A DNA stretch of 63,850 nt, filler included, from Dimargaris cristalligena (taxonomy: Eukaryota): the NCBI GenBank assembly GCA_003614675.1. It is 23 parts of 23 records of this genome, joined end to end, with 100 filler letters (N's around TTAATTAATTAA, not from the genome) between each part and the next. Parts side by side here need not be neighbours in the genome. Positions count along the whole stretch, not along the records: positions 36,415 to 39,092 come from ML004140.1; 22 more parts are not named here. One strand, written 5' to 3'. Position 1 is the stretch's first letter; every line of letters starts with the position of its first letter. Below are positions 2,926 through 63,795 of the stretch, piece by piece. The notes beneath the pieces are model-generated. The model was not told the origin of the DNA. It made no database searches and was given only the letters and a program-made list of their open reading frames with translations. The position numbers were made by a program, and so were the translations under genes.

Positions 2926-5681
2926 CCATCTATATCCATAATCTATTATTGGTGCTAACATTAATAACCAGTTCTGTGTTTTAAATGTTATACCATAATA
3001 GTACTATGGTGGCTATAAGCCATTCCTGGTACATTAATCACTACATTTATTACTAGATTTGCCAAGCCTTACCTTCACATTAGGGACATTGTAGTTGTTA
3101 TTGACTACATTATAGCTACTAGGTGTCCTTCTGGTCAGTGGCAGGGCTAGTAGTGTAGAACATAATTAGTTATATTGGTAATGTATTGTAATAACCAACA
3201 GGGCTAAACCCCTTTCAATAGACAATGTAGTAGGTTCTGTTGCAGGGTCTAGCTACTATTATTGGTATGGCCTTCCTCTTGTAAAAGTACGTCCAAAACT
3301 TCAAGGTGCCTTTCTGTACAGTAATTAAAAATACTGCACTTTACAGAAACCTTTATTCAAGAACCCTTGCCATTGTCATGGTCCTGTTCCATTACCAGGT
3401 GGTATCTTTAGCCATAGCAATGATTGGTCATGCTAATCCAAAGTCCAGTGACTAGATCAATATTGAATACTTGGTGGTGGACTTCCATATAGTCATTTGA
3501 ATGGTTGTCAATGGGAACGAATGGGTATATTAATCATCCCTTGCCCAATTATGGCCACAAGTCTCCAATTGTGTTATTGTTCCCCTAATGGTTATGTGGA
3601 ATGGACCTATGGTCTAAGCCCACTTTGAATACCTAGTTGGCCATCATATACCATACCAATTTGATACTAGTGATAACTGGAATCATTATAAAATGGTAAA
3701 GAAATTGCCTCTCCATATCCCACATTGAACTGATATGCACCTCAACATCTCAGAACTTCAGCTATTACTGTTAAATATATACACACATTTTGACATACTA
3801 TAACACACCCCCCCCCCCAAACACAGCTTCCAACAAGATGGCCAGATCAAAGGTTGTTTTGTCTGCTCTATGGGCTGCCTGCATGAGCATATGGAGGCAG
3901 CTCCCTGTGACAAAGCAGGTCAATAAATATACTAGCCACTCCCAACAGGGTGGCTCTGGGGCCACATCTCTTAGCTTATTGGGGGATTACCCCACTGCTG
4001 ACCCTGATACTGACCTCATCAATCAAGATAGAGGTCAGCCATGGAAACCAGCCACCCAGTAATTCCAATCCGGGTGGCACCTGCCCATGTGCAGGTTAAA
4101 TGGGTTTCATATTAAGCAAATCATATGTTTGTACTTGTATGTTTTTTTTATTGGTGGACATTCATTTTTTTATATTGGACAACTTGGTTAGTAATTAATA
4201 AAATAAATATATACCCACACATTAGTACTTTACGGTCAGTAAAATGTATAGGCCGGGAATGTATCTCTTAGTTTGAATTCCTCTGTAATGTTTATAATGA
4301 AACCGTGGCTGTACTAATAATGTAAGAGATACCGATAAAGTCCTTTGATAGTTGTGATGGAGAGTATCGAATTGACTTGTTAATAGGGTCGTGCTGATGG
4401 TTTTACTGATTGAATAAATTCTGAATAATAGCTAACATAGTATTGTCCGAACTGTTTCAGTGGCTTCATTCATTGTTAAACCCTTTGGATGGATTTCAAC
4501 AGGACGCAATGGTTATCCGACTTTTCAACTGAACTATAGAATGCTAAGTGCATGTTGCTAATAGAATGCTCAAAATACTTTATTCTGGTTCCAATAAAAA
4601 TACATCTATTAATTTATATTTGGGCTTAGTGCAATATGCCCGTGTACACAAATTAGTAGCTAGCCCCTTGGTATATTCTATATTCCGAGATCACGATTTC
4701 CTGGGGCATTTTAAGTAATACGTTTCTCTGGCTAAAATTCAATCACTCAAATGAATTACGGTATTCATATGAATACACGATTTTTCCTATTTCTTCTGCC
4801 ACCAGTGAATCTCCAGTCTGATGTATAATGCACCTTCCATTACCTTTTTAACTGGCAACTGCTTTGCCAGGCCCATACCATCTGGCTTTACCAATGTTGG
4901 ATTTATCGGGGGTAGTTCATTACACTACAATATTCTTAAACATTTCCACATTCTATATTATTCCCAGAGTTTTAAATTGGGGCTCCCACAACAACCAATA
5001 TTGTATCGGTACTCATATTCGCCAAACGAGCAATGTCACCTATCCATTGCCGCTGGCTTTGACTTTCCACCCATATCTTCAGTATTGTCTCGTTAAAGCC
5101 GGTCCTAAAATCACGCTGCCACTTTTTTTACTAAATGACCACGTATTTCAGTCTTCCAGCTTTCGTTGTATTGATAAATAACCGGGACCCTGGCGTTTGG
5201 CATTGATGTACTATACCGATTTTTTTATTACCAAGCAATCCTGGCCTATGAAACTGGTCCCGGAGCTTTAAAAGCGGCTCACAGGTGGATATCATATTTG
5301 AAGGTTACCCTATGTAGGGAGAGGACTTCTGAGCAGCCATTGCACTATAGCATCTAGAGGTTCGACCAGTTAAAGAAATATACTCTGTCCGGAATACTAC
5401 ATTTTCCTTTGTTTAAATGGCTGAAGCTAATACAAAAATAGGCCGACTTCACATTCACCTGTTGTGGCCGGGCCTGCTTAAACTCTAATAGCATATCCCA
5501 GCCAAGTTATTTTTAGTTTAGAAAAAATGAAGAACATCACTAAATATCAGTCTTCATCTTTTCCCACCCAGTTATAAGCCANNNNNNNNNNNNNNNNNNN
5601 NNNNNNNNNNNNNNNNNNNNNNNNNTTAATTAATTAANNNNNNNNNNNNNNNNNNNNNNNNNNNNNNNNNNNNNNNNNNNN

Positions 5682-16849: not shown

Positions 16850-17299
16850 TTGGTATTGGGTATCAGTAGTACCAGTGCCGGGTGTTGGTGGAGTCGGTGT
16901 AGGTACCGTCGGTAGTAGTGGTACCATCGGTAGTGTTGGTATCGGTGTCGGTGTTGGTAGTGTTGGTATCGGTGTCGGGTGTTGTTATCAGTGTTGGTAT
17001 CGGGTGTCAGTAGTATCGGTTTCGGTGGAGTTGATGTTGATGTCAGCGGTGTCGGGTGTCGGTGTGTGTCAGTGTTGGTATTGGGTATCAGTAGTGCCAG
17101 TGCCGGGTGTTGGTGGAGTCGGTGTAGGAACTGTCGGAAGTCGTGGTACCATCGGTAGTGTTGGTATCGGTGTCGGTGTTGGTAGTGTTGGTATCGGTGT
17201 CGGGTGTTGTTATCAGTGTTGGTATCGGGTGTCAGTAGTATCGGTGTCGGTGGAGTTGATGTTGATGTCAGTGGTGTCGGGTGTCGGTGTTGGTGTGTG
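16850..17299. repeat. Two copies of a 225-bp unit built from GT-rich short repeats
   Basis: TTGGTATTGGGTATCAGTAGT starts at both 16850 and 17075, and the downstream sequences are nearly identical. Confidence 0.9.
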
Positions 17300-18252
17300 T
17301 TGGTGTTGGTATTTGGTGTCAGTGTCGGCGCCGCTTGCTGGGCAGGGTGGAGGTCAGTAGATAGACCGACCCGGGTTTGCTGGGGGACCGGCGGTTTTGT
17401 AGCGAGGCTTCGATATCCAGCTGTAGTTGGGGTCGGTGCCGCTTTCTGGGCGGGGTGGGGGTCGGTGGACGGACTGGCCCGGTTTTTCCAGGGGACCGGT
17501 GGTTTTGTTATATGGTGTCGATTTCCTGTAACAGCTGGGGCTGCTGGTAGGGGTTCAACGGCTGACTGGACTTTGGTGGCTGGTAGGAATTCGATGGCCG
17601 GCTGGGATTCGACGGGCAGTAGAAAATCGGGTGCTGGTAGGGGTTCGGCAACTGACATGGTTTTAGTAGCCGGCAGGAACTTAATGGCCGGCTGGGATTC
17701 GATGGTCGGCTGGGATTCGATGGGCAGTAGAAAATCGGGTGCTGGTAGGGGTTCGGCAGCTGACATGGTTTTAGTAGCCGGCAGGAACTTAATGGCCGGC
17801 TGGGATTCGATGGTCGGCTGGGATTCGATGGGCAGTAGAAAATCGGGTGCTGGTAGGGGTTCGGCAGCTGACATGGTTTTAGTAGCCGGCAGGAACTTAA
17901 TGGCCGGCTGGGATTCGATGGGCGGTAGGTATTCTACGGCCGGCTGGGATTCTGGTGCTGGTAAGGGTTCGGAAGCTGATATGATTTCAGTGGCCGGCAG
18001 GAACTCGACGGCTGGCTGAAACCTGATGGCCGGCTGGAATTCGGCAGATGACGGGATTTTGATGGTCGATAGGAAATCGGTGGTCAGTTGGGATTCGACG
18101 GGCAGCAATGACAATTCAACTGGCGGCAGCGACGGTTCGATGGGCAATAGCCACTTGATTAGCAGCAGCAATTTAACAACTGGCGGATATTTGAAGGCCA
18201 GTGGAAATTCAACACCTGGTAGATCATTGATGGCCGGGGACTCTTCGGCCAT
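16850..18252 (-). CDS. Multicopy Pro/Glu-rich repeat protein (3'-partial), function unknown
   Basis: ATG at 18252 (MAEESPAINDL); open for more than 460 codons; 6-aa (18-bp) units such as PIESQP and AIEFLP; paralogous starts at 47255 and 50029. Confidence 0.5.
17540..18110. repeat. 18-bp tandem repeat with a 108-bp higher-order unit in three copies
   Basis: TGACATGGTT recurs at 17653, 17761 and 17869 (period 108 = 6 x 18). Confidence 0.9.
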
Positions 18253-19375
18253 CTTTACCAGGTGTAAATAACCGGAAACAGCTAGGCGAGCCACTAGCTC
18301 TAAAATTAGGAGCTATAGTTATTATATATAATGTTTAGAGGCATACAATATTAGTGTCAAATAATTCTATAAATATAGTGTCAGTAATAGTAATAGTAAT
18401 TGATAATAAATTGTATAAATAATAGCAGTATAACCAAAACATTTCACTTACTTGTCCGGCACATTGGATACCAATGGTGATGGGGTGGAACAGGGGCGGT
18501 GTAACAAAAAAAAGTAGACTCATTTTACGAAGTAAGTAGTTATAATATTAAACTATGGTGAAGACGATAGAGAAACCCGGGTAGGACAAGTGATGTGTAT
18601 AAATACTTTTTTTATTCATAATAATTCAACTGGCCTTAGGTTGGCCTGCCGGTTGGCGAGGCTCAACCGAGACTATGATGGCCAGTGTGGTCTGGGCCGG
18701 GTTAAACGGTGTGGTATTTTAGGGCAATGCCACTTCACATACACTCCTATGAGTACAGGATATCAGTGGCCCGTGGGAGGGCTTTTGTAGTGCTGCAAAG
18801 TGCAGCATTGGGAAAGTTTATTCGTTATCCTTTTTACTTGTTTATATACTTCCCGATATTCTCCCCTAGTTCATATAGTGTTGCATATTATGGGGTTCGG
18901 GAAGCCTTTTCTCCTATCAAACCGGATCAATCATTATCAGTTTCAATATATTCCCGTTTCATATAACGGAGGCATCCTCATCGGGCCGTTGTGGGAGCTA
19001 GCTGTTACCGTCATAGCTGCTGGAGGAAGTTTGTGTCTGGAGCTGACCATGGGGCAGCAGTGCACCTCATCGAGAAGGGGCAAACCCCTCCCGCTGCCCG
19101 ACTGAGTGCTGTAAAAATCCTCATTCTTAGTTTGAGGTCTGGGGTATTTCAACCCACCAGTTTTGCTCCCTAAATCGGGGAGCGAAAAACCTAGCAGCAT
19201 ATATTATTTTCATTCGATCCTTAGCATTCATTATAAAATAAAAAAACCCTTCTAGTCATTGTGAATTGAAGAAGTCATCGAGGGTAAAGCAGCAAGTAGC
19301 CACGACTTCTTATTTACATTTCAAATATTAATAACAATCATTGATCCCCTTACGACGTTACCCACAATTCGCAGT

Positions 19376-19558
19376 ATGTTTCGCTCCAGTCGTAATCGAT
19401 CAGTATCCCCGCAAGAGATGTCACCATCACCGTCCCCTTCTCGGCCTGAATCCCCAAATTTACGAAGGTCTGGGCCAACTTCCGTGTCTCGCCCTGGGTC
19501 TTCTCAACCCGGCAGGCAAATCGTCACTCCTCCCGGATCCCCGGGGCGAGGCATTACA
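19376..19558 (+). CDS. Probable N-terminus of a Ser/Pro/Arg-rich protein (3'-partial)
   Basis: MFRSSRNRSVSPQEMSPSPSPSRPESP...; GC-richer than the upstream DNA and open to the contig end. Confidence 0.35.
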
Positions 19559-36414: not shown

Positions 36415-39092
36415 ACTGATGCACGGGTCGCTTCGCTTATCGACTATTATGACAAGGAGCCACCTCGTGGGTGTCTCAGGTAGATCATCTTATTATTAAT
36501 GATCACGGCTGCAGGTTGATGATGGTGATCCTTGATGACGTTGATGTTGGTCATGATGATGTTGAGGGTGGTGACGTTGTTGATGATCCTTTATGAGGTC
36601 GCTTCGCTTACCATCACCGATTGAAGGAGCCACCTCGTGGGTGTCTCAGGTTAATTACCATTCATAACTTTAGACAGCCACAGCTGGCTCCTAGGTGGAG
36701 GACCTATTAATGCTCGTTGGCTTCTTTAGATTGAACCCCTGCTAATCCTGGCGTGATCTCATGTTGAGCCGACTGTGGCCGTCTCAGGTTAACCTTATTA
36801 ATCTTGGCTGCATCGGTGGAGGTGTTGAGACAGCCACAGCTGGCTCCCTTGTTGATCATGAGGTTGACGACGGTTAGGATGATGAGGGTTCTGGTGGTGA
36901 CGTGTCAGATCGAATATGTAAATTATGGCTGCACGGTTCAACATGAACTATGTCGCTCCACTTACCATGAGGATTAGATTGAGCCGCCTATGGCCGTCTC
37001 AGGTCCTTGGCTAATTCATGTTGCACGAGACAGCCACAGCTGGCTCCTTTCATTAATCCTTTACGATCGACGATGCTGATGAGTGACCGATGATGACGGA
37101 TGGAGCCACCTCGTGGGTGTCTCGGGTTGGACCTTATTAATTACCGCCGAATCGTTGAGACAGCCACAGCTGGCTCCTCTTGCTAAGGTTGTTGATGATG
37201 ACGATGATTCACATGTCGCTCCGCTTACCAATTATTGCTGAATGGAGCCACCTCGTGGGTGTCTCACGTTTATGACCTACTAATAACCGTTAATGTTCTT
37301 GAGACAGCCACAGCTGGCTCCTTCGATGGTGATCCCGAGGTTGACTTACCCCGATGTACAAGTCGCTTCGCTTAACAATCGATTCTGTATTGAGCCGCCT
37401 GTGGTCGTCTCAGGTGGATTACGTAGATTAGGGCTGCACGGTTGATGATGCAAGGTCGCTTCGCTTACCAACACCAATAGATTGAGCCGCCTGTTGCCGT
37501 CTCAGGTAGCACTTACAGTCCGTGGCTGTACGGTTAATCTCAACTCTGTTGGTGACGGGGTGATGTCAACCCCGCTGGCTAACCTGTCGAGGTGAATGAT
37601 GATTAGGATAGCTCCTTTAGATCGTGGTTGCAGGGTTGACGATGAACAAGGGGTCGCTTCGCTTAACACTTTTACTGCATTGAGCCACCTCGTGGGTGTC
37701 TCGAGTCACATTTAAACCATGGTTACATGGTTGGGGACTCAGGTGAATCATTGATAGTTAGGGCTGCAGGTAAGTAGCTTAGGTAACACTTAAATCGGCG
37801 CTGCACGGGTTCATGGGCCCTTTGATGGGTCGCTTCGCTAACAGGATTAGTTATATGGAGCCAGCTTGTGGCTGTCTCAAGTTGAATACGATGATGAATC
37901 AGGGTTGCAGATGATGAGCAAGGGGTCGCTTCGCTTATGATGATCGCTGTGTTGAGCCGCCTGTGGCCGTCTCAGGTCGTTTACTAATAATCCTTGCTGC
38001 GGTTGATGATACCCTTACTGGTGTTGAGACAGCCACAGCTGGCTCCTTTCGTTGACCATTTACTACTCCTTGCTGCACCATGATTGAGCCGCCTGTGGCC
38101 GTCTCAGCACTTACTATTAATTCTTGCTGCATGAGACAGCCACAGCTGGCTCGATGGTGACTCGTTGTCTTCGGTGGTAATAGTGATGTAGTCGATCGCG
38201 ATTCCTTCCCGTTAATGATCCAAACGAGGTCGCTTCGCTCACTCATCTTCATCACATGAAACCGACTCGGGTAACTCGTTTAGATCACTGCTGCACTGTT
38301 GGATGAACACAAGGTCGCTTCGCTTATTAAACCGAATGGATGGAGCCGACTCGTGGCCGTCTCAGGTCACTTATAGATCATAGCTGCTCGGGTTCATAGG
38401 TACTGCACAAGGTCGCTTCGTTTACCGATGTTGAGACAGCCACAGCTGGCTCTTATTGCTAAGGTCGATTATCAATTATGGTTGCACCGTTGAACATGAT
38501 CTCGAGGTCGCTTCGCTTACCGGTTATCATTGAAGGAGCCACCTATGGGTGTCTCGGATTACTTACTGAAATTAATGCTGCTTCGTTGATCCTGAACGGT
38601 GTCGCTTCGCTTAATAGCTTAAATAAATGGAGCCACCTCGTGGGTGTCTCATGTTGATTAAAGAGCGTGGTTGCACTGCTGAGACAGCCACAGCTGGCTC
38701 CCTTGAGGACTTTAATAGTCTGATACCCTGAGCCACCTGTAGCCGTTTCATGTAGAATGGTAAATTACTGCTGCAGGTTGAATGAACAAAGGGGCGCTTC
38801 GCTTATCAATGATCACTGAAAGGAGCCGCCTGTGGCCGTCTCAGGTACTAGTCACTTTAACTGGATGAATGGTCTGATGATGAACTTTACCGATTGAAGT
38901 TGAACCTGAGACAGCCGCAGCTGGCTTCCCTTGCTGAATCCTTACTAATCGCTGCTGCACCCTTGATGTCGATTCTGTCGCCCCGCTGGCTAAACTGTCG
39001 AGGGTGATGACGATTCCACGGTGATCTGCACGAGGTCGCTTCGCTCAACATTGCCGTTGAAGGAGCCACCTTGTGGGTGTCTCAGGTAACTT
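36415..39092. repeat. Non-coding modular array of short hairpin motifs with unique fixed-length spacers
   Basis: About 16 copies of motif A (GGTCGCTTCGCT), about 18 of motif B (GAGCC(A/G)CCT(C)GTGG(GT/CC)GTCTC), 10 of inverted B' (GAGACAGCCACAGCTGGCTC) and a recurrent G(C/T)TGCA; no long ORF. Confidence 0.95.
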
Positions 39093-41968: not shown

Positions 41969-42701
41969 GGACTAATGTCGGTGGTCGATTAGGATCTTTC
42001 ATGGTCCAGGCCCGAGCTACCGCACTCAGGACCGTGTCAAATTGGTTGGCAAACTCTTCTATAGCAGGGGCCCGGTAGGTATTGCGGGAGTATGTAATAT
42101 TCAGCGTAGCCGAACTGTTTGCTACACTAAATTCAATCAGCAACTTGACTCCCGTCATGGTCAAAAGGGAAGGCAGGAAACTCTCAACATTGGTGTCGGT
42201 AAGATGGATGGAACTGTCAATGGTACTGTCAATGATACTGTTGGTGGACTGATTGGTTGCACTGGATGTATTACAATGCAGGATCACCTCGGGAGGCGGG
42301 GATGAATCTGCAATTGCATTGGACGGGTTTACACTTGTGGTGGTGAAGTTAATTGTTGGCCCGTAGCACTCGTCGCTGAAGTTTATCAACGAAGAAACTT
42401 GGACTTCGGGGACCACGTTAAACAACGCCCAGACCAGTAGGGCACCATCGGGATATCTACCATTAAGGGTTTCGGTAGAGTGTCCAAACGCCACCTCCGA
42501 TTGGCCATAGTACCGACTTAGTAAAATGGCCAATGTAGCCATGGCCACATTTCTGGATCTGGATGCAAGATATGATTGAACAATTTCCGATGAGAGTTGG
42601 TACTGGTAGGTTTCAATACCCTGTTGGACTCGGCTGGGCCTGCCTAGAGGCAACTTAACCTTTGGACGGAATTCGGTGGGTACGGATGCAATCGGGGCCA
42701 T
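41969..42701 (-). CDS. NRPS (or NRPS-like) N-terminus with a truncated condensation domain, 3'-partial
   Basis: KLPLGRP, ATLAILLSRYYGQSEVAFG and LNITYSRNTYRAPAIEEFANQFDTVL match the C-terminal half of a condensation domain (LPxDRP, LLxRYxGQxDxxxG, YxxxLFxxxxI). Confidence 0.65.
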
Positions 42702-44743
42702 ACTACTAGTAGTGATGGTGGAATATTGAGGATTACTTGGTGATTGGAACTGTTGTATATTGGCGGATTAAAAATCCTGGAACTGAGTGAGACGGAGTGT
42801 GTAGGAATACTATTGATAAGAATTTATCACTGTGGATCTAATGAATATGACAAAAAAAAAATGCTATTGTGTACTTATAGATGTCTTTGGCGGTATTTAT
42901 ACCGAAATGGTCGATAAATGTGCCAGACGTGCAGTGGCAATAGCCCCCCCCCCCTTTAGACTCGTTAGCCGATAGAGACCACTACATTATCGGCCAACTA
43001 TACCGTTGGTAGGTGTATTAAACCGGTTTTAAAGACATACGTGGCACGTAAACCTGTTTCCCGACAGGGTTATTTAATCGTTGAGAGACATGTAGGATAT
43101 TTTTTTGACAAGACCTTAAACCTACTCTGCACCATAACGAATAGGATGATGGGTTAAAGCCACGATTACACAATGCATTATAGTATTTGATAATGGGTCT
43201 ACAATTCTAGTTCATACTATCACCTTCACCATGTTAAAGATAGGGAGTTTAGTTTTTTTTAATGAACATCTGAGTGCCACTTATCGACTACCACTACCCT
43301 AAATAGCTGGCCATGTTTCTAGTATCCAAATTACCACCGTATGCAACCTATTTCCGGATCAATACCATTGAATTTAAACACCCAAACGAACCACTATGTC
43401 CATTTCGAGTCGCGGCTAGTCAAAAAACACCCCACTTTTACACTAGATACTAGTATGTTCTTTCACGAAATAGCTGGTATTCAGTGCTGCTGACAGCAAC
43501 AGTAGACCGTGGTGGAGTGATTACATGGATTCCATATATCACGTGCAACTCCACCTCCCTTCCATTACATGGACCACACTTGAGCGCTATTCTTCTGATA
43601 TTAATAGGTCCCGAACTACCTGTATTTATAGTGGGCCCATCAATTTACGACTATCAGTCGATAATGGATATCCTACAACACTTCGAATTAGCCACCAGAC
43701 TTCTCGACCAGAATACTAACACTCGGTTTAGTTGTGCACCGGAGTATCCTAAATAGCTCAAATTTCTTCTGACCTATCCAATCTTACCTATATGTTATGT
43801 ATATGGGCAATATTATCATTCTCCCGATCGAATATACAGCTCTGCTTGTCCAATACTAGGCTAGGTCCGAATTTGTATTTTCCGTTGCCGGACATAACAA
43901 TATATGTGCGTGTAGTGTAAGTAATATTCAGAAATCTTCTGCAGCGGTGTATCTGACTGGTCAGGTTAATAGCCGACAAACGGCGAACACTAAGCCGCCC
44001 TCTACCACGATGTAATAAAATGCAAGTCCGCCAGCGTCGGCGACATAATATCCGACGCAATATATCATCCCTGCGTTGGCGGAATAGTCATAGGGTAGAC
44101 AATGCTTACGCTGGCATCAAAGTTTATCCGACCCCTGCTGCCGCGGATTAGTAGTGGTGCCTTGCCGTAACTATAGAAAGACGAATTGTTCAACACTCTA
44201 CCACTTCTACCAAATCCCCCGATGCACTTTAGATGGAGGACCCTTCTATCGAACCAGGCCTGCAGCTATCAGCCGCCCCCTTTATATATAGTGAATGCCC
44301 AACGTTTGTTTGATCTTACTCATTCCCAGCCGCCTAGTATTAAGTGCCTCCACGCTGCTCAGCAACAGTATCCACGGATTGCCTCCTATAGTTACGTTTG
44401 GGTCGAAGGGGACCAGTATGTTTGGGTGTACCGAGTAGGGTGTGGTGATTTTTAAGATAAATAAGTGTATTTTATTAGAACAAAAAGATCCCGCGATAAC
44501 GTGGGCTATTCCTTATTTTATACTCCGGGTATGTTGGTATTGAAAATAAGTCTTGTAACTATTCGCTCTCCGCTTGGCAATGTACTCTCACTGGGGGGGT
44601 GGGGAGGGCAGAGGAAAGGCCATGCCGGTTTAGAGTTTTAGCGNNNNNNNNNNNNNNNNNNNNNNNNNNNNNNNNNNNNNNNNNNNNTTAATTAATTAAN
44701 NNNNNNNNNNNNNNNNNNNNNNNNNNNNNNNNNNNNNNNNNNN

Positions 44744-61826: not shown

Positions 61827-63795
61827 CTACAGTTCAAGTTTACAGCCTGTACCTGCTATTTGCATAATAGGGCGATTACCCCTTCTATCATGGGAATAAT
61901 TCGTCAGGACCGATCGGGCCACATTCTTATGCAGAGTTGGCCGGTTGTAATAGTCCATAAACGTAGTCCTGACGCGCCAATTTGCCGCTTTCATAATCTC
62001 TTCCTGGCTAAACCCGAGTTGGTAGGCCGCTGTAGACGCGGCAGCCCGAATGGAATGGGCCGAAAAGATGTTGGTATCGACCTGGGCCTCCTGTAACAGG
62101 GATTTGATCTAGTTACCCAGAGTATCCTCCGACGCCATATGGCCATGCTTGGTAATGAATAGGGCCTGTTCTTTAGGTTGACGGAAGGTATAGGGCTTGT
62201 TAATGTAAAACCGGGTATTACGGACCGGGCATAGTCGGGAACTATCTTCCAAGGCCTGGATGTTGATCGATTTTCGTTTACCCTCTTTGGCATGGTATGC
62301 CGTAATCATCATGACCTCAGGCTGGTCACTCTCCTGGTGAAAAGTTACAGAATCCAGGGTTACTCGGGCAAAATCACTACGCGGTCGCCACATGGTGGTT
62401 AGACACAGTATGGTTAAGACTTTCTGGCAGAGTCGGTGCCACAGCAATGCATCATTATCCGGAAGGTTGGCCAAATGGTCAATAAGCTGTTCCACCCGCC
62501 AGATGGGGGGTTTCTCAGTAGGCTGCACTAAATGGTCCAAGCTTCACACAAACAGATTGAGATGTTGGTGTTTTGATACTGGATGACCTGGGTACCTGAT
62601 GTCCCAGGTAGAAATAATAGCCACCTTGTGGAGTTTGATGGTATGGATACTGGCCATTTTGGAAAGTTTAGACAGATAATTTAACAGGGTTAAGGCATCT
62701 GGTTGGCAATGATTCTTTTGGCGAGATAGGCACCAATGGGCAAACTTTTTCCAGGCATACTGGTAGGCCTTGTTAGTATTGTTACACAGTCCCTGGCAGA
62801 CACTGGTAGCAATTGCCAGTGAAACACCCTGCTTTTTGAGGATTGCCCTGATATCTTCTAGGTGATTAATAGGAGCTGCAGGGTCGGTAGTAATAGTGGA
62901 TAATCTACAACTATTGGGAGTAGGCGAGGAAACCAGGATTGGGTCTGCCAATATGGGGTCACTAGGGCCAGGGTCAATTTGCATTGCAGAACCTGATTGA
63001 TCACATGGTGGATCTGGTTCCATGGTGGAAAGGCATAGGTGTTTTCCTAAGGCCAAGGGAATTGAAATGCGTCCTTTGAAGGTTTCTGCCAGTGGGGATA
63101 AAGGTAATAATACTGGGGAAGTTGATGATGGAGGGGACTGGCAAAGAGGTCGATCCCCAGTGGCCCCCATTTCGAATTCAGGTGCCAGAATAATGGGACT
63201 GGGAGTACTAATTCCCGATAGGCTGGGGTTATCCTGCTCAACTGATTGGCTTCAGTATTGCAGTTGCCTAGGATATGCACCGCCTTCAGAGTTAAATTTC
63301 GGTGGGTTAATTTGTTGGAAATCACAAGGGCTAGTGATTGCAGGGCTGGTACTTGAGTACCCCCCTGCCAATTGATATACTTTAGGACAGTGGTATTGTC
63401 TATCCAAAGTAATAGGGACTGGTCCCAAACCTGAGCTGGTAGTTGATTGATAGCCAGTTCGACCACCTTGAGTTCCTTCCAATTGATGGTTTGTAACTGG
63501 TTGGTGGGGGACCAGAGTCTGGCCTGACAGAGGACCAGGCTCACAATCCCATAGCCTGTTTCAGATGCATCTGTGAAGATGGTCATAGTAGGCAGTGGGT
63601 CCCTGTGCAGGGGTTTCCCTGAATTGGTCTGCACTTGTTGGGCCCACCATTCTAACTCCAGTTGGGCCCAGGGTTTGATTTGAATGGGCTTGGTCTACAT
63701 CTGATTCTGCTGGATTAAGCAGCACTGGAGTTGGCATAGGTGGATTAGTCTATTAGGTACCGCTGTGGCAAGGTAGAGTGTCCCCTTGATTGCCA
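61827..63795 (-). mobile_element. Decayed DIRS-type tyrosine-recombinase retrotransposon (RT C-terminus, RNase H, methyltransferase-like domain, YR)
   Basis: RNase H motifs IFTDASETGYG, INWKEL, IDNTT, GGT, NTEANQLSR; MT-like IDLFAS...DAF.FPW...YAFPPW. Overlapping YR with TNKAYQYAWKKFAHWC, TMWRPRSD, CPV, AHSIRAAAS, ANW, TFMDYY; stops at 62544 and 62109. Confidence 0.92.

Follow-up and report, generated by a model that had tools for sequence, protein, structure and literature searches.

A non-coding mosaic of box-bearing ~95-nt modules in the Dimargaris cristalligena assembly, probably a fragment of a satellite-type repeat family

One contig of the Dimargaris cristalligena assembly GCA_003614675.1 (ML004140.1; 36415..39092, + strand) is a non-coding mosaic of ~95-nt modules in which short boxes are far better conserved than the sequence between them. 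It is probably a fragment of a very large and old non-coding satellite-type family of eukaryotic, likely fungal, origin, whose boxes we infer to be recognised by protein. The DNA examined (the window, 63,850 nt) comprises 23 contigs of about 2.7 kb separated by N linkers, and the repeat occupies one whole contig, which has a GC content of 0.495, ends within repeat motifs and carries no sequence outside the repeat that could flank it. No stop-to-stop frame exceeds 114 aa, and the reading frames over the motifs vary between copies, with no consistent frame across modules. This agrees with the preliminary description of the whole contig as non-coding, as expected of satellite DNA, and speaks against a coding repeat or peptide-precursor array.

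The ancestral unit of ~95 bp consists of box A, 18 nt, box B, ~21 nt, box C (GCTGCA) and ~18 nt. A module profile search recovered 16 near-full direct modules, 4 partial direct modules and 10 inverted partial matches, which together cover 1931 of 2678 nt; the inverted matches span model positions 30-82 and thereby reach into the spacer. Repetition is head-to-tail and one-way, as in satellites, with the 16 near-full modules direct and boxes A and C confined to the + strand. The order of the modules is nevertheless that of a mosaic and not of a clean array: only 6 of 15 A-to-A intervals measure 85-98 nt, four of them consecutive, and Tandem Repeats Finder did not call a ~95-nt array on the contig because the copies fall below about 70% identity.

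Box A is GTCGCTTCGCT, a doubled TCGCT. With up to one mismatch it was found 15 times within the contig, always on the + strand, compared to 0.24 times in shuffles, and once more in the other DNA of the 23-contig window; a 16th copy with two mismatches lies at 36952. All 16 copies are on the + strand, which reproduces the earlier count of about 16 copies facing one direction, and identity among them is 95%. The reverse complement of A contains GCGAAGC, as had been stated for its minus strand, and this heptamer is kept in 14 of 16 copies (the box A 11-mer is exact in 13, and the 14th, at 38793, differs outside the heptamer only). For the GCGAAGC mini-hairpin a Tm of 76.5 C is given, and such sequences are described as frequent at replication and transcription origins, the examples named in that review being single copies at phage and plasmid origins (PMC13037366). 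This stability is taken from the review and not from folding here, where a nearest-neighbour model gave 0 kcal/mol for box A on either strand. The portrayal of A and B as two conserved hairpin motifs was therefore only partly borne out, as A did not fold and a single forward B folds as DNA, but weakly (-3.1 to -4.3 kcal/mol, z -0.4 to -0.9).

A forward B follows 14 of the 16 A copies, and the gaps between them (19, 18, 18, 19, 19, 18, 18, 18, 18, 18, 18, 18, 19 and 17 nt, in order along the contig) reproduce exactly those listed previously. These composite A-B units, all on the + strand, are located in the same order at 36427..36477 (B1 type), 36598..36647 (B1), 36952..37000 (A with two mismatches, B2), 37215..37265 (A with one mismatch, B1), 37362..37411 (B2), 37455..37503 (B2), 37653..37702 (B1), 37829..37878 (B3), 37925..37973 (B2), 38314..38363, 38507..38555 (B1, 20 nt), 38601..38650 (B1), 38793..38842 (A with one mismatch, B2) and 39035..39083 (B1), the last with the contig end 9 nt beyond it. 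The two remaining A copies, also on the + strand, lie at 38229..38239, followed by a decayed B at the usual place, and at 38412..38422 (one mismatch), where an inverted copy of B (termed b) stands in place of B after 10 nt; by hand count the A-to-C length is 69 nt in this copy and about 70 nt in an ordinary module. Of the 12 distances from B to the next GCTGCA-like box that could be measured, 10 are 19-22 nt and the other two 25 and 30 nt, in line with the spacing first reported; the distance from box C to the next A is 15-23 nt, close to the 14-22 nt given before. G[CT]TGCA itself occurs 16 times on the + strand and not once on the - strand of the contig, compared to 1.46 times in shuffles. 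Gap length varies less for A-B (variance 0.34) than for B-C (9.9; Levene p = 0.044) or C-A (6.5; p = 0.004), which lends modest support to the suggestion that spacer length is selected.

The companion suggestion, that spacer sequence is free, was not supported. No two of the 14 A-B spacers are identical, as noted before, yet they are more alike than shuffles both as a whole (z = 12.9) and in their cores after trimming 4 nt from each end (z = 6.4), with 0 of 500 shuffles as high in either comparison. Their identity is 45-46% against 25% expected; they begin with TA(C/A/T)C and finish in GAAG/GATT-type words. The B-C spacers are likewise alike (z = 7.5 versus shuffles). The spacers are therefore diverged copies of one ancestral ~95-bp unit and not acquired guides. 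According to the preliminary description, spacers of this kind together with a lack of excess conservation in A and B would reduce the array to an old degenerate satellite; spacer likeness bore out the first half of that description, and the second failed. Identity is 0.95 for box A and 0.86-0.91 for box B (0.78 for its AGGT), compared to 0.35-0.36 for the stretches adjoining the boxes and about 35-46% for the inter-box stretches overall, a disparity of the CENP-B-box type, so the repeat is not an evenly drifting satellite. Nor do ordinary satellites necessarily drift evenly, as had been assumed, since divergent nematode satellite monomers are reported to share a fully conserved box (PMC3694981, PMC8097292).

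Box B is a 20-21-nt imperfect palindrome plus AGGT, present in 18 forward and 10 inverted copies within the contig. Four forward copies on the + strand have no A upstream: 36766..36785 (B2), 37103..37123 (B1), 38086..38105 (B2) and 38730..38749 (a decayed B2). The inverted b copies, which the preliminary description lacked, lie on the - strand at 36671..36690 (first base changed), 36827..36846, 37027..37046, 37157..37176, 37301..37320, 38026..38045, 38133..38152, 38433..38452 (in place of B within its module), 38681..38700 and 38908..38927 (two changes). Pairing within the palindrome has been kept, as 94.2% of 224 cells pair across the 28 copies and 0 of 500 shuffles scored as high. In two of the pairs both sides have changed (AU 19 and GC 8 copies; GC 11 and CG 8 copies), a covariation that corresponds to three subtypes and hence to few events, and one pair is left unpaired in 9 of 28 copies. 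A single C.T mismatch is invariant throughout and therefore gives the element a fixed polarity. The 20-nt core is identical in 8 of 10 b copies, whereas the b flanks and the forward B copies vary, and the B3 type corresponds to b in forward orientation plus one additional T. The position of b within the unit differs, as it can follow C, fall within the B-C stretch or stand 10 nt downstream of A, and its orientation relative to A is the same in all copies. It was a segment made up of the 3' part of the spacer and B that was inverted and spread as b, and the b flanks and inverted B flanks are weakly alike (z 3.0-3.3).

Nine of the ten b copies pair with an upstream B to form foldbacks of 68-109 nt in one orientation, which were likewise absent from the preliminary description. 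Their stems are imperfect and 20-24 bp long, their loops measure 23-65 nt, and they are predicted to fold as RNA at -26.7 to -51.6 kcal/mol (z -2.4 to -7.0); in seven of the nine cases, none of 200 shuffles folded equally well. Along the + strand they are found at 36625..36692 (-34.1 kcal/mol, z -6.95), 36764..36848 (-40.1, z -4.09), 36979..37048 (-26.7, z -2.42), 37101..37178 (-35.1, z -3.76), 37243..37322 (-34.8, z -5.47), 37952..38047 (-37.9, z -3.80), 38084..38154 (-36.9, z -6.53), 38628..38702 (-36.1, z -3.91) and 38821..38929 (-51.6, z -7.00). Modules that lack b (seven consecutive ones between 37362 and 37925, and those between 38229 and 38601) form no long hairpin. The b copies show no co-variation with their partners: the same b faces either B1 or B2 with 2-3 fixed mismatches, and the long stem is therefore not visibly selected.

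In Logan contigs, six runs of three studies, no RNA run among them, contain 68-93% of the sampled words of the stretch, and in four of these runs 2282, 162, 233 and 4139 contigs match it at >=85%; their modules are shuffled, and spacers other than those of the contig occur at hundreds of joints between modules. All four runs also yielded exact pieces of the stretch. Contig depths are about 3300-4100, 530-750 and 4-8 depending on the run, with no single-copy baseline, and both the counts and the depths summed over contigs are distinct from copy numbers. In all four runs the summed depth is highest in the bins that contain b, at several times that of bins with only A-B, which would fit a separately amplified element, and two runs have contigs of 513-764 nt with a match to the B2-C-b part only. 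Searches with the motifs and the module profile found no member of the family in the ~61 kb of the remaining 22 contigs. The 20-nt b word gave four single matches in a search of one genome from each of 185,579 prokaryotic species and three single matches in metagenome contigs, both about chance level; no viral contig matched. By blastn, the contig as a whole had no match among plasmids or phages. A full-text literature search for the motif strings, with supplementary files outside its scope, returned no paper, and the literature on fungal satellites yielded general reviews only. Neighbouring contigs of the window include Mn-SOD and DAGAT genes, which are eukaryotic, and one contig carries a bacterial shufflon protein, so the assembly is mixed. 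On the basis of the Mn-SOD and DAGAT contigs together with one feature search, the repeat is tentatively assigned to a eukaryote, probably a fungus.

Under the satellite interpretation, the boxes would be retained because one or more sequence-specific DNA-binding proteins recognise them, much as for the CENP-B box or the nematode 19-bp box, with A and B forming a two-part putative binding site at fixed phasing. Palindrome B may be a hot spot for rearrangement, where inversion, template switching and module shuffling would produce the mosaic order. The CENP-B box is the box conserved in the alpha satellite of primates. Fungi seldom have satellite arrays, and their centromeres and heterochromatin consist mostly of transposons or AT-rich DNA; a centromeric, pericentromeric or other heterochromatic location is our guess. 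Biased gene conversion or mobility, in place of protein binding, could also account for the conservation of the boxes. Box A, compared by eye only, does not fit what we take to be the CENP-B box pattern. The closest parallel is provided by Meloidogyne satellite DNA, where Box 1 as well as Box 2 is reported as nearly unchanged at the junctions of non-coding monomers with 32-64% identity (PMC3694981), and by CenH3-bound repeats that share a fully conserved 19-bp box (PMC8097292); mosaic or higher-order arrays of differing monomers are described for these nematode satellites as well. In contrast to box-bearing satellites of this kind, the contig has three boxes, two of them at a fixed 17-19 nt and one an imperfect palindrome with inverted copies as well; none is related in sequence to the nematode and CENP-B boxes, and a fungus is the probable host. 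Should the boxes prove to be genuine binding sites, the contig would represent a satellite defined by its sequence in what is probably a fungus, and a simple system (two boxes, fixed spacing, a flipping palindrome) for studying how boxes survive in a decaying repeat. For the present its main value is corrective, as an array with a repeat-spacer look has mutually related spacers and should therefore not be kept as a candidate guide-RNA locus.

A bolder version, which we regard as a long shot, is that A-18-B is a polarity-specific recognition module whose dedicated protein reads the palindrome as a hairpin or cruciform, maintains the boxes and drives inversions and shuffling; candidates would be a domesticated transposase, an HUH-type nuclease or a CENP-B-like factor. 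If true, the repeat would be either the eukaryotic, here fungal, equivalent of REP/BIME-type elements or a centromere satellite defined by its sequence. REP/BIME elements are imperfect palindromes of ~20-35 nt with a fixed polarity mark that occur clustered, in both orientations, in non-coding DNA. Box B resembles them in being an imperfect palindrome with a polarity mark (the C.T mismatch) in 18 forward and 10 inverted copies. It differs in that the many copies expected in a bacterium were not found (four single matches of the b word in 185,579 species), that adjoining contigs are eukaryotic, and that REP elements have nothing equivalent to box A or to the tandem ~95-nt frame.

Several other interpretations were weighed against the satellite. 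The contig might be a cluster of small mobile elements, foldback or palindromic in type (MITE-like, or eukaryotic counterparts of REP/BIME or of mitochondrial hairpin elements), in which the active unit, b or the 70-110-nt B-C-b foldback, was repeatedly inserted into an older repeat. The invariant b core amid varying flanks and forward copies, the differing places of b within the unit, the 9 of 10 b copies that make foldbacks with B and b arms of 20-24 nt like the terminal inverted repeats of a MITE or foldback transposon, the high summed depth of b bins in all four runs and the contigs limited to B2-C-b all speak for it. Short hairpin repeats are also reported to invade and spread in the non-coding DNA of mitochondria in fungi and other opisthokonts, as the double-hairpin elements of chytrids and those of sponges do (PMC2800124, PMC4478555). 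Such elements lie scattered in intergenic mtDNA, however, whereas here a one-way array with non-palindromic boxes was found, at a GC of 0.495 and with no mitochondrial gene or RNA on the contig. Yeast GC clusters also belong to the mitochondrial hairpin elements, and the GC content of the contig exceeds that of most fungal mtDNA. Insertion at random would not yield b in a single orientation relative to A, and the weak flank likeness together with inverted matches that reach into the spacer fits inversion of module parts better. No target-site duplication was seen in the flanks of b or of the foldbacks, and no dispersed copy in the other 22 contigs, although both are small samples and thus weak counter-evidence; no transposase or HUH gene is at hand. 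We consider this interpretation unlikely, though worth keeping in view. A transcribed array whose foldbacks are processed to small RNAs (miRNA-like or siRNA), perhaps feeding heterochromatin on the repeat, is a rather improbable alternative. Nine foldbacks of 68-109 nt in one orientation with imperfect stems do resemble miRNA-like clusters and inverted-repeat siRNA loci, stable precursors are predicted for all of them (z <= -2.4 in 9 of 9), and the sole Rfam near-matches are two miRNA precursor families on two of them. These scored E 0.57 and 0.97, at 20-22 bits where the families require 61-75, and unlike in miRNA-like clusters the arms do not co-vary; moreover, such folds arise from any inverted repeat, and the b-less modules have no long hairpin.

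With A and B as promoter-, enhancer- or origin-type sites at fixed spacing, the contig could be an array of replication origins or a block of sub-repeats from a regulatory spacer present in many copies, for instance the rDNA intergenic spacer. This would account for two boxes 17-19 nt apart in one polarity throughout and for exact pieces at uniform, high contig depth in two runs, and GCGAAGC on the minus strand of A is of a kind described as frequent at origins (PMC13037366). Still, the mini-hairpins named in that review are single-copy phage and plasmid origins, the folding model gives A no structure, and Rfam (E up to 1, both strands) detected no rRNA, tRNA, snRNA, snoRNA or ribozyme on the contig. 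The 2282 and 4139 contigs of two runs, with their hundreds of joints, exceed in our judgement what one spacer would produce. We regard this explanation as very unlikely. The option favoured by first appearances, a guide-RNA-like array in which each A-B spacer was independently acquired against a target, is scarcely credible. As in CRISPR, conserved and variable stretches alternate, the variable ones are near constant in length and polarity is uniform, with 14 non-identical 17-19-nt spacers between conserved motifs; here, though, the spacers are kin by descent and share their start and end words, and the remaining inter-box stretches vary in the same way. The "repeat" is in fact three boxes (11, 20-21 and 6 nt), each separated from the next by a variable stretch, instead of a single 23-55-nt repeat, the spacers are shorter and interrelated where CRISPR spacers are unrelated, no ORF or cas gene lies on the contig itself, and the b word, at chance level in prokaryotic genomes and absent from viral contigs, gives no sign of a prokaryotic or viral host. 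The preliminary description was thus right that this is not a canonical CRISPR, and its guide-RNA option was rejected; of its other options, a phased protein-binding array and a field of palindromic elements are retained as candidates. An assembly or amplification artefact with chimeric inverted joins is equally hard to believe: the contig does end in repeat motifs and inverted copies are frequent, yet error-free contig pieces of 111-888 nt from runs of three studies tile most of the stretch, and the inverted copy has the same sequence at ten places.

Four small motif-based candidates were also dismissed. TGATGA and CTGA words near some modules, suggestive of a C/D-box snoRNA cluster, have no fixed place, and Rfam was silent. 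One CTGATGAG word at 37075, as in hammerhead-type satellites, has no helix II/GAAA partner and no Rfam match. Tiny introns (AG|GT after B, a TTACTAAT-like core and GCTGCAG) were discarded with CAG in 5 of 16 C boxes and no open frame, and Helitron 3' ends were judged by eye, with no CTRR word at a fixed distance past the hairpin. Within the mosaic, a GAT/GTT-rich low-complexity run (36516..36587, + strand) extends the GGTTGATGATG stretch that usually follows box C.

The feature fills one entire contig (36415-39092, 2678 nt, GC 0.495) of the 63,850-base window, in which 23 contigs of ~2.7 kb each are joined by N linkers. Three short conserved boxes, A, B and C, recur along it in modules of ~95 nt. 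Motif A (GTCGCTTCGCT) was found in 15 copies at ≤1 mismatch, every one on the + strand, in line with the single orientation given in the preliminary description (shuffles, 0.24), and a 16th copy carries two mismatches. A forward B lies downstream in 14 of the 16 cases, after gaps of 19, 18, 18, 19, 19, 18, 18, 18, 18, 18, 18, 18, 19 and 17 nt, and the 14 spacers all differ from each other; both the gap list and the lack of identical spacers were thus reproduced exactly. The spacing reported from B to the GCTGCA-like box C, mostly 19-22 nt, was likewise recovered in 10 of 12 measurable cases (25 and 30 nt in the remaining two), with the next A following after 15-23 nt. The pattern G[CT]TGCA is confined to the + strand of the contig, where it has 16 occurrences (shuffles, 1.46). 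The A-B distance is tighter than the other two distances (variance 0.34 versus 9.9 and 6.5; Levene p = 0.044 and 0.004), modest but real evidence that A and B are kept in phase. The contig also proved non-coding, as described, since the longest stop-to-stop frame is 114 aa and frames through the motifs change from copy to copy.

A profile built from 14 modules and run over the whole window returned 34 rows in all, among them 16 near-full modules and four partial modules without A (B-C halves) on the + strand, and 10 inverted partial modules covering model positions 30-82 (the 3' part of the spacer plus B), which never included A. Elsewhere in the window, the profile produced a single match at E = 4.2. 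Rows at E ≤0.01 span 1931 of the 2678 nt, and the contig outside the profile rows consists of GAT/GTT-rich low-complexity sequence extending the post-C stretch and a few other segments. Tandem Repeats Finder did not call the ~95-nt array because its copies share less than ~70% identity. Outside the module profile, a 35-nt segment (CCCCGCTGGCTAA...TGTCGAGG...) occurs twice (37570-37604 and 38981-39015, 86% identity), and an A-like word with two mismatches opens this repeat at 38977.

Spacer sequence had been taken to be free, which the comparison of spacers contradicts. The 14 A-B spacers resemble each other far beyond shuffles (z = 12.9 whole and z = 6.4 with 4 nt removed from each end; 0 of 500 as high), sharing 45-46% identity where composition predicts 25%; they start with TA(C/A/T)C and end in GAAG- or GATT-type words that track the B subtype. 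The B-C stretches are also mutually related (z = 7.5) and have a common TTAYTAAT-like core. On this evidence, every inter-box stretch is a diverged copy of one ancestral unit. Conservation is nevertheless uneven, with identities of 0.95 for A, 0.86-0.91 for B and 0.78 for the AGGT after B versus 0.35-0.36 for the 12 nt flanking each side. The contrast cannot come from picking modules by their boxes: an A sits at the correct distance from 14 of the 18 forward B copies, and by a rough estimate almost no 11-mers would remain had A decayed at the spacer rate. The stretch after B (36477-36513 and other B-to-C stretches) looks like a miniature intron, with AG|GT, a TTACTAAT-like core and GCTGCAG; this was dismissed as coincidence, since CAG is present in only 5 of 16 C boxes and there is no open frame.

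B is an imperfect palindrome present both ways, as 18 forward copies of three subtypes and 10 inverted copies (b); among the latter, eight share an identical 20-nt core. With the 28 copies all turned the same way and aligned, pairing held in 94.2% of 224 cells, a level that 0 of 500 shuffles reached. Two pairs are altered on both sides (AU in 19 and GC in 8 copies; GC in 11 and CG in 8, with 9 unpaired), double changes that rest on three subtypes and hence few events, and an invariant C.T mismatch fixes the polarity of the palindrome. For nine of the 10 b copies, a forward B is found 23-65 nt upstream, and the two form foldbacks of 68-109 nt with RNA folding energies of -26.7 to -51.6 kcal/mol (z -2.4 to -7.0). 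Two of these foldbacks gave -17.0 and -18.3 kcal/mol as DNA (z -3.6 and -4.7), and lone forward B copies gave weak DNA hairpins (-3.1 to -4.3 kcal/mol, z -0.4 to -0.9). For A, the nearest-neighbour model predicts zero structure; the model also fails to reproduce the stability published for the GCGAAGC mini-hairpin (Tm 76.5 °C, withstanding 7 M urea; PMC13037366). In module 38412, b stands in place of B but 8 nt further upstream, and A-to-C measures 69 nt by manual count versus ~70 nt ordinarily, as would be expected of an in-place inversion taking in the spacer end and B. The b flanks resemble inverted B flanks weakly (z 3.0-3.3).

Six public sequencing runs from three studies, under three organism labels, contain 68-93% of the contig's sampled 31-letter words. 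In four of them, 2282, 162, 233 and 4139 Logan contigs (pre-assembled from such runs) match the stretch at ≥85% identity; they contain hundreds of box-to-box joints with differing letters between, and most of the stretch is tiled by pieces of 111-888 nt that carry no errors. Together, these matches, joints and pieces show that the family is large, that it comes in many spacer variants with its modules shuffled, and that the stretch did not arise as an artefact of a single assembly. Summed contig depth, which is not a copy number, was several-fold higher in b-holding 90-nt bins than in A-B-only bins in all four runs, and peaked in each at 36775-36864, 37135-37224 and 37945-38124. In run X1, b bins reached ~100,000-180,000 versus 4,000-35,000 in many b-free bins, which hints that no other piece of the family is as abundant as the part bearing b. 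None of the collections searched yielded a relative. Rfam at E up to 1 gave just two miRNA-family matches, both below threshold and one on each of two foldbacks, and the 20-nt b word had only single matches, in four prokaryote genomes and three metagenome contigs, and none in viral contigs. Blastn of the contig against plasmid and phage collections gave nothing, and a full-text search of papers (main texts) returned no hit to any of four motif strings.

The best-supported explanation is an old, diverged satellite-type repeat family that has kept three boxes and the A-B phasing, given the tandem one-way order, common descent between boxes, uneven constraint, inverted partial modules, large family and preservation of palindrome B despite two-sided changes. 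The premise that ordinary satellites drift evenly does not hold: Meloidogyne satellites of 32-64% identity share boxes exactly at monomer-type junctions (PMC3694981), and in CenH3-bound repeats the monomers diverge while one 19-bp box is fully conserved (PMC8097292). Both combine divergent units with conserved boxes, as here, and offer direct precedent. The boxes may be protein-binding sites, with A-18-B a putative two-part site; palindrome B could drive inversion and module shuffling, and the array may be heterochromatic or centromeric.

Of the rivals, the strongest, albeit an unlikely one, is a field of mobile foldback elements: the near-invariance of b, its occurrence at several unit positions and its seemingly greatest abundance would suit it, but no target-site duplications were seen, b always faces the same way relative to A, and the other 22 contigs hold zero copies. 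The nine stable foldbacks would also fit a hairpin-RNA locus, which we consider less probable again as the foldback arms lack co-variation. Little favours an rDNA-spacer or origin array, a distinctly improbable reading. The guide-RNA-like array proposed in the preliminary description also has little in its favour and was rejected as scarcely credible, its spacers being mutual relatives (z = 12.9 and 6.4), which is directly contrary to it. An assembly artefact is just as implausible, contradicted by error-free pieces in three studies.

The contig thus appears to be of a known kind, box-bearing satellite DNA, here with an invertible palindrome and probably fungal. Genes of eukaryotic type are present on neighbouring contigs (Mn/Fe superoxide dismutase, DAGAT acyltransferase, a Myb-type protein and a PH-domain protein), the superoxide dismutase lying nearest to mostly Basidiomycota clusters, a weak hint from a feature search not designed for taxonomy. 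One contig (30850-33535, GC 0.574) looks bacterial, with one frame matching a shufflon protein N-terminal region (PF04917, E 2.2e-17) and another a CAP domain protein with a lipoprotein-like start (E 3.4e-8); the assembly is therefore a eukaryote mixed with a bacterium (contaminant or associate), and the fungus is probably the source of the satellite-type contig. Elsewhere, a 504-aa open frame of proline-rich tandem repeats, with units such as ESQPAIKFLPATKTMSAAEPLPAPDFLLPI, lies on the - strand of 16850-19558, the region with the strongest GC skew in the window (0.445). An open frame at 41970-42767 runs off the contig end and weakly matches the NRPS condensation domain (E 2e-4; 20.6 bits, where the family cut-off is 30.6). 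Two overlapping - strand frames at 62544-63694 (235 and 215 aa) had no match in a Pfam search; by eye, they bear a tentative likeness to a DIRS-type retroelement in its recombinase and RNase H parts.
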